From: Clostridia bacterium
GTDB lineage: Bacteria > Bacillota > Clostridia > Oscillospirales > CAG-272
Direction: 5' to 3'
DNA length: 64,000 bases
Assembly: GCA_017625935.1 (NCBI GenBank)
Contig: JAGALA010000034.1
Coordinates: 18,593 to 82,592, forward strand
Part shown: positions 22,599-24,434 of the stretch, piece by piece
Layout of the letters: every line of letters begins with the position of its first letter
How positions within the stretch are numbered: position 1 is the stretch's first letter
Notes under the pieces: generated by a model
The model's input: only the letters and a program-made list of their open reading frames with translations
Databases searched by the model: none
Told to the model about the DNA's origin: nothing
Position numbers and translations under genes: made by a program

Positions 22599-23081
22599 TT
22601 ATTTATGATATTTCGTACCGTTTACAATAGAAAGTGAACGGTAGGCTGTTTCGTATAAAATAACGCGTAAAAGCTGATGCGGAAACGTGAGCTTAGATAC
22701 CGACAGCTTAAAGTCCGCCCTTTGCTTTACCGATGGGGCAAGCCCAAAGGATGATCCGATGATAAAGCAAATTTCGCTCTTTCCGAGCGTGGTTATTTCG
22801 TTTATTTTTGAGGCAAGCTCCTCGCTTGAAAGCTGCTTACCCTCAACGCACATAGCGATAACGTACGATTTATTTGAGATTTTCTCAAATATCGATTTAG
22901 CTTCCTTTTCAAGCGCTAAATCAATTTGGCTCTGGCTTGGATTTTCGGGCAGCTTTTCTTCCTTGAGTTCAATTTCCTCAACCCTTGCCCAAGCGCCGAG
23001 CCGCTTTTTATATTCGTCAGCCGCTGCGCGAAGATAGCCTTCCTTTAGGTTTCCTGTTGCAATAATTTTTATGTTTAGCAT
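22599..23081 (-). CDS. rlmH: 23S rRNA (pseudouridine1915-N3)-methyltransferase RlmH
   Basis: The protein is 160 aa with the SPOUT fold pattern (IGSSFGL...LSVSKLTFPHQL). Confidence 0.88.
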   Translation of the reverse strand: MLNIKIIATGNLKEGYLRAAADEYKKRLGAWARVEEIELKEEKLPENPSQSQIDLALEKEAKSIFEKISNKSYVIAMCVEGKQLSSEELASKINEITTLGKSEICFIIGSSFGLAPSVKQRADFKLSVSKLTFPHQLLRVILYETAYRSLSIVNGTKYHK

Positions 23082-23084
23082 TAT

Positions 23085-23135
23085 TCTTCAATCAATTTTT
23101 CAGCCGCCGATAAAATTGCCAATTTTCCGCTTTAA
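23085..23135 (-). pseudogene. Orphan duplicated 3' end of the PLP-enzyme gene (encodes SGKLAILSAAEKLIEE*)
   Basis: The minus-strand translation matches the C-terminus SGKIAILHAAENLIKE* of the 23190-24434 gene. Nucleotide identity is about 75%. The fragment's stop codon (23082-23084) abuts the rlmH ATG. Confidence 0.7.
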
Positions 23136-23189
23136 CCGGCTCCTTTGTGTAAAGGGAGCTGTCAGCTTTGCTGACTGAGGGATTGATTA

Positions 23190-24434
23190 TTACTCCTTAA
23201 TCAAATTTTCGGCAGCGTGTAAAATAGCAATTTTACCGCTTTCGTATGTGAGCGAGCCTTGGAAAAATGCGGTGTACGGTGGGCGCACAGGACCGTCACA
23301 GGAAAGCTCTATCGATGAGCCTTGAGTAAACGCGCCTGCCGCCATAATTACCTCATCCTGATAGCCCGGCATTGCCCAAGGCATTGGCGTTACGTATGAG
23401 TCAACAGGGCTTGCTGCCTGTATTCCCTGGCAGAATTTTATAAGCCCGTCAGCGTAGCCAAACTTAACGGTTTGGATAATGTCCGAGCGCATCTCACTGT
23501 ATTTTGGATAAACGTCAAAGCCGAGTGCTTCAAGCACGTATGCGGCAAAATGTGCAGTCTTTATTGCTTGCGCAACAACGTGAGGAGCTAAGAAAAAGCC
23601 CTTGAAAAGATTTCTGTTTTGACCCAAGGTTGCGCCAACCTCACAGCCTGTGCCAACTGAGGTAAGGCGGTATGAGGCAAGCTCAACTGCCCTTTTTGTT
23701 CCCGCAATATATCCGCCGCTTTCGGCAATTCCTCCACCCGGATTTTTTATAAGTGAGCCAATAATCATATCTGCGCCAACGTGTGTAGGCTCGCGCTCCT
23801 CGCAAAATTCGCCGTAGCAGTTGTCAACCACGACGTAAGCACCGCTTCTTTTGTGAACAAAATCGCAAATTTCGCCTATTTCGTCAATAGTCAAGGTCGG
23901 TCGGTTTAAGTAGCCCTTTGAGCGCTGAATGAACACAACCTTAACGCGCTCGCCGTACTCGTTCAGCTTTTCTTCAATTCCGTCAAAGTCGATTTTGTCG
24001 TTCTTAAAATTCACTTGGTCGTACTTTACGCCAAAGTCGGCAAGTGAGCCGTCACCGTTTGCACCGTTAAGGCCGATAACCTCGCAAAGAGTATCATACG
24101 GCTCGTTGGTAACGGAAAGAAGGACGTCATTTGGACGGAGCAAGCCGAAAAGACCTATCGTTAAAGCGGTTGTGCCGTTTGGAATTGTATGGCGCACAAA
24201 CGCTGCCTCAGCACCGAAAACGTCAGCGTAAACCTTGTCGAGCGTATCTCTGCCGATATCGTCGTAGCCATAGCCCGTAGTACCGGAAAACATACTGTCG
24301 CTGACTCTATGCTCACGGAAAAATTCAAGCACGCGCGCGGTGTTTTTATATGATGTTTCGTCTATTTTTTTATAAATATCGCTAAGCGCGGCCTCTGCCT
24401 CACTTGCAATTTTAAGAAGTCTTTCTGAAATCAT
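23190..24434 (-). CDS. PLP-dependent enzyme, aluminium-resistance / YnbB (Cys/Met-metabolism lyase-like) family
   Basis: The protein is 414 aa. The N-terminus ...FSGTTGYGYDDIGRDTLD... is typical of this family. The RBS is aaggag. Confidence 0.65.
   Translation of the reverse strand: MISERLLKIASEAEAALSDIYKKIDETSYKNTARVLEFFREHRVSDSMFSGTTGYGYDDIGRDTLDKVYADVFGAEAAFVRHTIPNGTTALTIGLFGLLRPNDVLLSVTNEPYDTLCEVIGLNGANGDGSLADFGVKYDQVNFKNDKIDFDGIEEKLNEYGERVKVVFIQRSKGYLNRPTLTIDEIGEICDFVHKRSGAYVVVDNCYGEFCEEREPTHVGADMIIGSLIKNPGGGIAESGGYIAGTKRAVELASYRLTSVGTGCEVGATLGQNRNLFKGFFLAPHVVAQAIKTAHFAAYVLEALGFDVYPKYSEMRSDIIQTVKFGYADGLIKFCQGIQAASPVDSYVTPMPWAMPGYQDEVIMAAGAFTQGSSIELSCDGPVRPPYTAFFQGSLTYESGKIAILHAAENLIKE

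Follow-up and report, generated by a model that had tools for sequence, protein, structure and literature searches.

The window, by which we mean the whole 64,000-nucleotide stretch of Clostridia bacterium DNA that was analysed, carries on its minus strand a gene for a PLP-dependent enzyme (methionine gamma-lyase or 'aluminium resistance' family) and, downstream of it, rlmH, with a second copy of the end of the PLP gene and a double hairpin lying between the two. The PLP gene product matches the Pfam profile PF06838 (Met_gamma_lyase) at E 2e-171 over residues 8-411 of 414, the match reaching position 404 of the 405 in the profile. The features are as follows, where M denotes the hairpin repeat and E1 and E2 the two copies of the gene end.

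22599-23081, minus strand: rlmH (Pfam PF02590), whose native translational coupling to the PLP gene may be read from the stop/start overlap
23081-23131, minus strand: E2, the displaced native gene end (SGKLAILSAAEKLIEE and stop), presumably an untranslated relic, which resembles the tail of the empty allele
23126-23234, minus strand: the 109-nt insert, from the alignment of filled and empty conspecific alleles
23132-23189, minus strand: the 58-nt spacer between E1 and E2
23132-23138, minus strand: variable filler CGGTTAA from hairpin A to the relic, from junction tables
23136-23188, minus strand: M, a copy of a dispersed double-hairpin repeat and one terminal inverted repeat of the DUF559 element (covariance model, blastn, nhmmer)
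23139-23159, minus strand: hairpin A, GCTCC-C-TTT-ACAC-AAA-GGAGC, the outer end of the element (fold; covariation of the closing pair)
23161-23175, minus strand: hairpin B, GTCAGC-AAA-GCTGAC (fold; 3 of 6 pairs with compensatory changes)
23176-23185, minus strand: the 'tail' block of M, CAATCCCTCA, which is the inner end in full elements and here adjoins the stop codon of E1
23190-23240, minus strand: E1, the working last 16 codons and stop (SGKIAILHAAENLIKE and stop), which arrived with the insert
23190-24434, minus strand: the PLP-dependent enzyme gene (PF06838), whose present 3' end is E1

A sequence-only reading of this region had described a duplicate of the PLP gene end separated from the original by a module of two GC-rich hairpins, and this is indeed the arrangement present, E1 and E2 agreeing at 38 of 51 nt and at 12 of 16 residues, in the same frame and with the stop at the matching place. 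Together they form a 54-nt direct repeat of 76% identity, by far the longest within the kilobase in a repeat search, and the alignment of the flanks scores 56 against a maximum of 27 in shuffle controls. The 13 of 51 positions that differ (about 25% of bases) show changes of all kinds, including T to A, G to T and C to A, and adenine mutagenesis of the DGR type (VR/TR) was rejected as their source. E2 encodes the very amino-acid sequence of the live P0132 tail, and the last A of its TAA stop is shared with the ATG of rlmH, so that the TAATG overlap is retained. Read 5' to 3', the spacer consists of TAAT, the tail block, hairpin B, a single A, hairpin A and the filler, a position that is occupied in other M copies by 0-11 unrelated nucleotides. 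The insert comprises the body of E1, its stop, M, CCGGTT and AAAGCGGA, with boundaries that are ambiguous inside an 8-nt repeat, AAAGCGGW. The list of open reading frames places none within it, and it is hence without a transposase or integrase gene. The neighbouring genes are a large GTPase gene, BipA/TypA-like from the Pfam matches of its counterpart on contig L167, rlmH, and an FAD-dependent gene (GIDA/MnmG on related contigs).

Both hairpins fold as they had been drawn from the sequence (DNA MFE -10.6 kcal/mol, z = -3.7), and they belong to a family with strong support for pairing: 14 pairs, 98% of cells paired and 5 pairs with compensatory double changes, a level reached in none of 500 shuffles. 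The closing pair of hairpin A covaries between G-C and C-G, split 6:5, and the last base of the tail, CCCTC(C/A), covaries with this same pair; on the complementary strand the GAGGG of the tail mirrors the GGGAG of hairpin A, a likeness read from the letters. Hairpin B differs among M copies in both stem and loop, and a flip-flop of its loop was considered and set aside, as complementary loops do occur (AAA/TTT, TAT/ATA) and the loops are too variable to conclude. The stretch tgagggattgatta, which had been likened to the linker variants of the mini-hairpin arrays, is instead the tail block that is invariant across the M family, present as CAATCCCTC in all 11 aligned copies, and the proposed relation to those arrays is not supported, since the M covariance model finds nothing significant there (best E = 0.49). 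M has no match in Rfam, the sole match in the region being a chance malK-III in the neighbouring array.

The copy at the locus is recovered by nhmmer at E 1.5e-18, by the covariance model R1 at 79.5 bits and E 1e-21, the model having been built including this copy, and by blastn, which places it at 94-98% identity to five other loci of the genome. Full-length copies in this genome number 18 by nhmmer and 34 by the covariance model, and within the genus the latter detects M in 46 of the 50 genomes, a single genome having as many as 81 copies. Copies in the genus amount to ~1000 in total. M-family repeats often sit at contig ends.

M is one terminal inverted repeat of elements of ~0.5 kb whose only gene encodes a DUF559 nuclease (Vsr-like, PD-(D/E)xK), and the copy behind the PLP gene is a member of this DUF559-associated family of double-hairpin terminal repeats. 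A full element is present in the same genome (C50:19431-19900), where inverted M copies bracket the DUF559 ORF and the tail block overlaps the end of that ORF. This element is itself flanked by a duplication of ~105 nt, and the element on C61 by one of ~70 nt. Across the order, DUF559 ORFs were found in 19 of 61 genomes; ~22 of 30 such ORFs are bracketed by inverted repeats with the order hairpin A, hairpin B, tail, and ~6-8 of the 30 have flanking duplications of 39-111 nt. Among the titles and abstracts listed in a full-text literature search for DUF559, none concerned a mobile element.

The history of the locus is decided by conspecific DNA. The metagenome contig L082 carries an empty site with flanks 97-99% identical to those of the filled allele and a single E2-like tail, from which E2 differs at 5 of 54 positions, and the filled allele is present in G000 and again in L083 and L084, two assemblies from other samples. 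The empty allele comes from ERZ27317532, and ERZ27318266 and ERZ28594933 contain the filled one. Furthermore, the junction of the PLP gene with rlmH is uninterrupted in 24 species of the genus, where stop and start overlap or are separated by at most 25 nt. An empty allele within the species together with 24 uninterrupted species identifies the 109 nt (body of E1 plus M) as a recent insertion, and as the flanks are nearly identical while E1 is 25% removed from E2, E1 was already diverged at its arrival. Insertion, presence/absence polymorphism and the divergence of E1 before arrival are thereby established for the PLP locus. The sequence-only reading had taken the module to be an insertion, called for variants that lack it (it had thought of roughly 105 bp) and suspected that the hairpin modules are mobile; each of these points is borne out, the last also by the many dispersed copies. 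Its placement of the ancestral end at the second copy, the one whose stop overlaps rlmH, agrees with the tail of the empty allele, and this supports E2 as the ancestral gene end and E1 as a tail supplied by the insert. It had left open whether the new end was supplied or duplicated; the divergence between the tails, beside flanks that are nearly identical, indicates supply and not duplication in place.

Polarising E1 and E2 by species representatives failed, the tail region being ~25% diverged among all species, and it was the conspecific contigs that settled polarity. A donor for E1 was sought in 45 species of the genus and in the best 120 protein homologues; none comes closer to it than 38 of 48 nt or, once conspecific filled alleles are set aside, 13 of 16 residues. 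We also considered that a metagenome assembler had concatenated two strain variants of the gene end, given that the genome is a MAG of 61 contigs in which repeats of this family often end contigs. This explanation can practically be dismissed, because the same structure recurs in the two assemblies from other samples, analogous structures exist at many loci and in 46 genomes, and the element at the junction shows compensatory base changes.

A search of the genome for other duplicated gene termini at hairpin modules, which the earlier reading had suggested, was productive: significant flanking direct duplications of 41-93 nt accompany 9 of the 18 M copies. Among the copies sampled in relatives the figure is 36 of 94, with lengths of 23-190 nt and identities of 71-100%, which puts the share of flanked copies at ~40-50%, and about half of M copies have no flanking duplication. 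In the junction tables the intact gene end always lies on the inner, or tail, side of M, and the sites are the 3' ends of co-oriented genes or the 5' ends (RBS and first codons) of genes on the opposite strand. One account of such a pattern would be transposition in the proper sense, with a target duplication that is long and staggered, in which M or the DUF559 element inserts and duplicates 40-100 nt exactly, E1 and E2 are equal at birth, and the relic later drifts while a foreign allele is imported into the working copy. Young pairs are indeed nearly identical (65 of 67 at C4, ~90 of 93 at C15 and several pairs of 95-100% in relatives), duplication length is variable yet bounded, full elements are flanked by duplications as well, and a first cassette at a gene may well be born by this route. 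At the PLP locus, however, the alleles share flanks of 97-99% identity around E1 and E2 that agree at only 75%, and the foreign tract begins exactly at the repeat boundary and does not extend further upstream, the preceding 100 nt being 98% identical between filled and empty alleles. The differences themselves also resist this account: pooled over E1/E2 pairs they give a pN/pS of 0.16, and their synonymous fraction of 0.63 is far above the 0.35 expected for a relic drifting in place (P = 1e-6). We therefore hold transposition of this kind to be quite improbable as the origin of the structure seen here.

Other loci bear on the divergence of E1 at its arrival and on secondary recombination. At an ABC-transporter locus the empty allele of a conspecific alternates in blocks between E1-type and E2-type sequence (runs test P = 0.003), and so the relic-type sequence is a live allele elsewhere. 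In the nadA array of G015 the tail in the middle combines sequence of the two beside it, the product expected of unequal crossing-over, and the relics of G012 and G015 have one frameshift in common and a downstream stretch that is near-identical by eye, although their nadA bodies differ in ancestry. A 'reciprocal mosaic' at TatD, considered as proof of a single Campbell crossover, is not significant (P = 0.26) and is suggestive only. Finally, identity among M copies from different loci is 94-98%, against 70-90% for the tails that flank them, an excess that would need either concerted evolution of M or repeated re-insertion.

We propose a model for the PLP locus that most reasonably fits these observations, and we consider it probable: a hairpin cassette that is non-autonomous and brings with it a foreign allele of the gene tail recombined with the resident tail and was thereby integrated. 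The cassette would consist of M, a 50-nt double-hairpin repeat, and E1, a spare copy of the last 15 codons and stop of its target gene, which would be a natural allele other than the resident one. The unit would have entered the PLP gene within the species when the carried tail recombined with the resident tail, formally by a Campbell-type or 'ends-in' event or by one homologous arm and a short-homology join at AAAGCGG. After integration the PLP gene would read into E1 and stop at the inner end of M, and the native end E2 would be displaced 109 nt downstream, where its relic still adjoins rlmH. Such cassettes can be amplified into (E-M)n arrays, and they may be lost again when the two tails recombine, with mosaic gene tails as the result. 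We infer the route of recombination, and likewise whatever part the DUF559 nuclease may play. Two results weigh against the model: no donor lineage with an E1-like native tail turned up in the species and homologues searched, and M copies are more alike than the tails beside them.

As for the route, the homology on the right-hand side amounts to only 7-8 nt (AAAGCGG), less than a RecA-type crossover needs and indicative of an illegitimate join. Alternatively, the event may have been homology-facilitated illegitimate recombination with no element-specific machinery, in which a fragment from a diverged relative, consisting of a gene end with M behind its stop, was anchored in the conserved block coding for LTYESGK and by chance ended at M, the hairpin end being joined at the 7-nt match AAAGCGG. 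A block of ~35 nt just upstream of the boundary looks highly conserved in the alignment, the 7-8-nt repeat lies at the join, variable filler nucleotides are found at hairpin-A junctions, and M copies without a duplication are predicted wherever the join falls downstream; the published cases of long target duplication are, moreover, mostly in naturally competent species (PMC2853133). Chance would nevertheless have to explain why hundreds of independent events end at one 50-nt element in constant orientation to the intact gene, and it leaves the stop-codon and RBS precision at the other junction unaccounted for. Microhomology at hairpin-A junctions, which such joins should enrich, is barely above background (3.9 against 3.5 nt, P = 0.04). 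By eye the junction microhomology had looked striking, with AAAGGAG set against GAGGAAA or AAAGCGG. We regard illegitimate recombination without a contribution of the element as unlikely.

A further explanation would make the locus the scar of a site-specific integrative element that gave the gene its new 3' end, with E1 and E2 as attL and attR around an island that has been almost fully deleted. The outcome, a working foreign end and a native relic, would be identical, yet the reading is very improbable, as no integrase lies within or beside the insert (the adjoining genes being the GTPase-like gene, rlmH and the GIDA/MnmG-like gene), the identical core measures only 7 nt, the 50-nt module occurs at many unrelated genes with differing 'att' sequences, and what the module terminates is a DUF559 element and not an island.

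Returning to the cassette that carries its own gene tail, we can extend it, speculatively and with more doubt than belief, to a reading in which the spare tail, diverged mostly at synonymous sites, is a working part of a selfish system and not a by-product. DUF559 nucleases would then act on empty sites, or on heteroduplexes with the M hairpins looped out, repair would be biased to the filled allele, and the carried tail would both rescue the gene and make the filled allele immune to the nuclease. Engineered 'recoded-rescue' gene drives and fungal mitochondrial mORFs follow such a logic, but here it would operate in bacterial chromosomes on dozens of housekeeping genes, and the hairpin cassettes, which have no enzyme of their own, would be mobilised in trans. 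Were it so, the orphan DUF559 family and BoxC-like repeats would gain a function.

Several known systems resemble parts of this picture. The integrated elements e14 in icd and ICESt1/CIME (micro-CIMEs) at fda supply a replacement 3' end to their target gene, and like the insert described here they leave a working end of foreign origin and a native end as a downstream relic. Those elements depend on a site-specific recombinase of their own and a single att site, whereas here there is no recombinase gene, the targets are many and the core is 7 nt. The classical MITE or IS, with two TIRs and a short target duplication of fixed length, does not describe M either, which is present as a single end with duplications of 23-190 nt or none. 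The REP/REPIN-RAYT system is closer in that it has short hairpin repeats in tens of copies, an enzyme gene bracketed by inverted copies, and gene-less copies that are far commoner than those flanking the enzyme. The partner of M is a Vsr-like nuclease and that of REP a Y1 HUH transposase (RAYT), and solo M copies are single ends whereas REPINs are doublets. To our knowledge, REP elements are not flanked by long duplications of gene ends.

The BoxC, PIT and TM (TMECO) repeats, a class of intrastrand-triplex repeats (Holder et al. 2015, PMC4666352), are likewise short, GC-rich, intergenic and multicopy and are associated with locus instability. TMECO further shares with M a C-rich/G-rich hairpin and a third matching block, which in M is the tail CCCTC(C/A). 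M differs by the second hairpin between its blocks, and the TMECO consensus CCCTCNCCC N3-6 GGGNGAGGG N3 GGGNGAGGG (PMC4666352) is absent from M when the letters are read against it. The paper on these repeats reports no partner enzyme, and the word 'duplication' is absent from its main text (PMC4666352).

Insertion with long target duplication (Nobusato et al. 2000, Gene 259:99; Furuta, Abe & Kobayashi 2010, PMC2853133) offers a footprint that is largely the same. In both cases the insert is absent from a close relative in which the flanking repeat is a single copy (here L082 as against G000, L083 and L084), the direct repeat exceeds 30 bp (54 nt here), no transposase or integrase is found in the insert, and the repeat may overlap the 3' end of a gene and be usable for amplification; the cycle proposed for the published cases is one of insertion, amplification and release (PMC2853133). 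Their cargo consists of 1-20 kb of restriction-modification genes, whereas the cargo in the present family is either a non-coding hairpin repeat of 50 nt or a DUF559 cassette of 0.5 kb, and their repeats are mostly ~93-100% identical in the tables of PMC2853133 as compared with 70-76% here. The junction rules seen here, with the inner end at a stop codon or RBS and a constant orientation, also set M apart from the published cases.

The mORFs of fungal mitochondria, in which a gene bears a foreign C-terminus, resemble the PLP locus in the order of their parts; they are described for atp6, atp9, cox2 and nad3 of Glomus (Beaudet et al. 2013, PMC3630166) and for atp6 of Allomyces (Paquin et al. 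1994, as cited in PMC3630166). Both there and here the gene core is followed by an inserted foreign C-terminus, a mobile element and a relic of the native C*-terminus. In both the native relic is nearer to relatives than the inserted tail, as the distances of E2 from the empty allele and of E1 from E2 show at the PLP locus, the differences are largely synonymous, and horizontal transfer of the tail is the interpretation given. Each mORF encodes its own LAGLIDADG or GIY-YIG homing endonuclease and has one target gene; the insert here has no ORF, and the nuclease tied to the M family is DUF559/Vsr-like. M cassettes are in addition usually enzyme-less, multicopy (tens per bacterial chromosome), hairpin-ended and found at the 5' ends of genes as well.

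Our best reading is that the PLP locus is likely a case of insertion with long target duplication and a bacterial parallel of the fungal mitochondrial mORFs, in which a 50-nt hairpin repeat and a spare gene end behave as a unit that enters the ends of housekeeping genes without breaking them. For gene evolution this would mean that termini are horizontally swappable in pieces of ~50 nt, and for annotation it would account for relic mini-ORFs, chimeric gene tails and contig breaks in MAGs of gut Clostridia. Because filled and empty alleles occur naturally in one and the same species, the mechanism lends itself to direct test. Furthermore, the footprint of long target duplication, formerly tied to restriction-modification genes, would be extended to a much smaller element and linked both to the uncharacterised DUF559/Vsr-like nuclease family, as a candidate partner, and to BoxC-like repeats.

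The junction between the PLP enzyme gene and rlmH is built from the following parts, in which E1 is the working end of the PLP gene, E2 the native relic tail and M a double-hairpin repeat of ~50 nt.

24434..23190, minus strand: PLP enzyme gene of the methionine gamma-lyase family, 414 residues (PF06838, E 2e-171)
23190-23240, minus strand: E1, last 16 codons and stop of this gene
23136-23188, minus strand: M, consisting of tail block, hairpin B and hairpin A
23081-23131, minus strand: E2, second tail copy, encoding SGKLAILSAAEKLIEE plus stop and separated from E1 by a 58-nt spacer
23126-23234, minus strand: insert relative to the empty allele, 109 nt, comprising the E1 body, stop, hairpin module, CCGGTT and AAAGCGGA

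The PLP enzyme covers the PF06838 profile up to position 404 of 405 and ends in SGKIAILHAAENLIKE plus stop, the last 51 nt of its gene being E1, and the TAA of E2 overlaps the ATG of rlmH (PF02590). E1 and E2 have 38 of 51 nt in common, a repeat search returns a 54-nt direct repeat of 76% identity spanning them, and the two flanks align locally with a score of 56, shuffles reaching at most 27. The spacer holds both hairpins and folds at -10.6 kcal/mol (z = -3.7). Coordinates, alignment and fold all agree with the sequence-only reading, which had described two tails with two hairpins between them.

That reading had also proposed an insertion displacing the original gene end, and this is borne out by an empty site in a conspecific contig and by the uninterrupted junction in 24 species of the genus, in which the PLP stop overlaps rlmH or lies within ~25 nt of it. 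The protein database contains a cluster of conspecific PLP variants, and all relatives compared are MAGs or metagenome contigs. The conspecific protein P0001, 97% identical and ending in SGKLAILSTAEKLIEEQC, is encoded on a contig (L082) with both flanks 97-99% identical to the window and a single, E2-like tail (5 differences in 54 nt) whose stop overlaps rlmH, representing the empty allele. Two contigs from other samples, L083 and L084, share the filled structure of the window, which excludes an assembly artefact. Divergence between filled and empty alleles is no more than 1-3% around the site, the 100 nt upstream of the repeat being 98% identical to the empty allele, whereas E1 and E2 differ by 25%, and the foreign tract starts exactly at the repeat boundary. 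This disparity rules out E1 as an in-place duplicate that later drifted, so E1 was already diverged on arrival; the 109-nt insertion is recent. Thus, where the new end had been suggested to be either supplied or duplicated, supply of a foreign E1 stands and duplication in place does not. A donor of E1 was not found among 45 species of the genus or the best 120 protein homologues.

The PLP-rlmH junction (window 23081-23190; L001-L030 and L198-L217 in relatives) is a hot spot for insertions within the genus: it carries a RAYT gene starting at TAATG in G004, mini-hairpin/linker arrays in G002, G007 and G062, and a solo repeat of another subfamily with a relic in G056, and other inserts measure 190-790 nt. 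In G001 (L004) the PLP stop is followed by TTTA, a 12-codon partial second tail (ILSAAEKLINN plus stop) lacking M, and then a DUF559 element; this partial tail may be a deletion derivative of the E1-M-E2 structure.

M belongs to a dispersed family and is composed of a tail that does not vary, CAATCCCTC, followed by hairpin B, with variable stem and loop, and hairpin A, (G/C)CTCCC-TTTRCACAAA-GGGAG(C/G). A 58-nt query (blastn-short) found copies 94-98% identical on five other contigs along with many weaker ones, a profile search found 18 full-length copies in the 2.08-Mb genome, and 34 matches there came from a covariance model of 14 base pairs, 5 of which show compensatory changes (98% of cells are paired; pairing as good in 0 of 500 shuffles), the PLP-rlmH copy being the only one within the window. 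Of 50 genomes from the genus, 46 contain matches to the same model, with up to 81 per genome, often at contig ends; an Rfam search returned nothing resembling it. The string tgagggattgatta, previously likened to the linkers of the mini-hairpin arrays, is the invariant tail of M, and as the model has no match in the arrays (best E = 0.49) a link between M and the arrays is unsupported. The suggestion that the hairpin modules are mobile fares better, given the dispersed copies, their presence or absence within species and the further duplicated gene ends. Some M copies of several species carry a ~27-nt nested hairpin (e.g. AACACAAGGCACGCCCTAAAGGGTGCC) inside hairpin A, which looks like a second small element targeting M, at

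C13:12106-12183 and C53:3178-3254, contigs of the window's genome
L066 and L166, loci of relatives

Two copies without flanking duplication (C40:16429-16520 and C55:11150-11239) share a ~35-nt extra module directly after hairpin A, GG.GA.ACAAGGAACCGTC.AC.TGT, which suggests a composite repeat.

Significant direct duplications flank 9 of the 18 copies in the window's genome (41-93 nt, 70-97% identity) and 36 of 94 sampled from relatives (23-190 nt, 71-100% identity), and in all junctions compared it is at the tail of M that the intact gene lies. One class includes nadA, tatD, an ABC transporter, a membrane protein and the PLP gene; here the M tail abuts the stop of a co-oriented gene, mostly with a gap of 0-4 nt, and in four cases the stop is formed by the preceding T and the first two bases of M. 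In a second class, 5-15 nt separate the tail from the downstream ribosome-binding site of an opposite-strand gene, and the duplicated piece is this site with the first codons. On the hairpin-A side, 0-11 unrelated filler bases precede the relic. Tandem arrays of gene end and M are common; they have periods of 84-122 nt and up to at least three units at four loci.

L119 (G004:C35:41773-41993)
L095 (G064:C21)
L114 (G055:C33)
L069 (G015:C18)

In the nadA array of G015 the central tail combines sequence of the tails on either side, the product expected from unequal crossing-over.

The junction geometry of solo M is also that of the DUF559 ORF within a full element. Four intact DUF559 ORFs (PF04480, Vsr-like; ~130 residues) are present in the window's genome. 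At C50 a pair of inverted M copies encloses the ORF, each with its hairpin A facing outwards. The 5'-side tail adjoins the ORF start and the 3'-side tail overlaps its end, and at C61 the 5'-side tail reads as the ribosome-binding site of the ORF; target direct duplications of ~105 nt and ~70 nt, respectively, flank these whole elements. M is thus one end of the DUF559 element. A DUF559 element of another subfamily occupies the PLP-rlmH junction only in some genomes or strains (G019, G001, G055, G064 and the strain of L167), which shows the element to be polymorphic and mobile. DUF559 ORFs have a patchy distribution in the order, with 1-4 copies in each of 19 of the 61 genomes; inverted repeats of hairpinA-hairpinB-tail architecture enclose about 22 of 30 ORFs, and ~6-8 of these have flanking duplications of 39-111 nt. 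Among the titles and abstracts listed by a full-text literature search on DUF559, none describes it as a mobile element. The subfamily at L167 (ENA ERZ27316224) ends in TAGCC...GGCTA, putting a stop codon at either junction; its 558-residue PLP-DUF559 'fusion' protein, P0127, requires TAG to be translated as Q, and is a gene-calling artefact across the terminal TAG of the element.

Both tails are natural alleles of the gene end. Seven coding E1/E2 pairs give pS 0.50 and pN 0.08 (ratio 0.16), with 63% of differences synonymous against 35% expected had the relic drifted neutrally beside a constrained working copy (P = 1e-6); the tails are short, and single-locus statistics are weak for that reason. 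At the ABC transporter locus two conspecific contigs have an empty site, and the single tail of one is a block mosaic of the E1 and E2 types of the window's genome (blocks of 5, 8, 5, 2 and 1 sites; runs test P = 0.003), so that relic-type sequence serves as coding sequence in another strain. Directly behind this mosaic-tail gene lies a convergent GIY-YIG ORF of 90 residues (L218/L219 2552-2858). At tatD one conspecific contig is empty, with a tail resembling E1 on the left and E2 on the right (not significant, P = 0.26), and another is filled with identical junctions and a different M interior. There (C19:16894-16947 vs L166) hairpin B is GTCGCCC-TTT-GGGCGAC in one strain and CCGCC-AAA-GGCGG in the other, resembling a loop flip, and in the family as a whole one stem can bear complementary loops (AAA/TTT, TAT/ATA); hairpin inversion, or flip-flop, might account for the loop differences. 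At nadA the relics of G012 and G015 carry an identical frameshift, and the stretch after the relic looks nearly identical when the printed sequences are compared by eye, while the nadA bodies are 91% and 73% identical to the window's genome, which places recombination breakpoints in the E-M-E zone.

From these structures we propose a model. The comparisons place a hairpin repeat, an end of a DUF559 element, between foreign and native gene-tail alleles, in a structure that is polymorphic within the species and recurs at many genes in fixed orientation. The unit moving between genomes would be M with one tail copy, and the carried copy would recombine with the resident tail, formally a Campbell-type or 'ends-in' event yielding working tail, M and relic. 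Reversal would leave mosaic tails, and iteration would give arrays. At the PLP locus the two copies share only AAAGCGG at the crossover, which is placed at the far left edge, and the right-hand join is better called a short-homology, illegitimate join; the left side falls in a block of ~35 nt whose conservation looks high in the genus alignment displayed. The microhomology signal at hairpin-A junctions in general is weak. A long staggered target duplication possibly creates the cassette the first time at a new gene, and nearly identical young tail pairs would fit this.

The insertion footprint and the logic of tail replacement are both already known. 'Insertion with long target duplication', a footprint known from restriction-modification genes (Nobusato 2000; Furuta 2010, PMC2853133), resembles our case in an insert missing from a close relative, a flanking repeat >30 bp and the absence of a transposase, and differs in the M cargo, the low repeat identity and the junction rules. 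The TMECO consensus of BoxC/PIT/TM triplex repeats, as quoted in PMC4666352, is absent from M. Closest in logic are fungal mitochondrial mobile endonuclease ORFs, which supply a foreign C-terminus while the native one persists as a relic, with synonymous changes and inferred horizontal transfer (PMC3630166); unlike M cassettes, each of these carries the gene for its own LAGLIDADG or GIY-YIG enzyme and has a single target gene. New here are a 50-nt enzyme-less hairpin cassette linked to DUF559, its abundance on bacterial chromosomes and its strongly diverged, allele-like tails.
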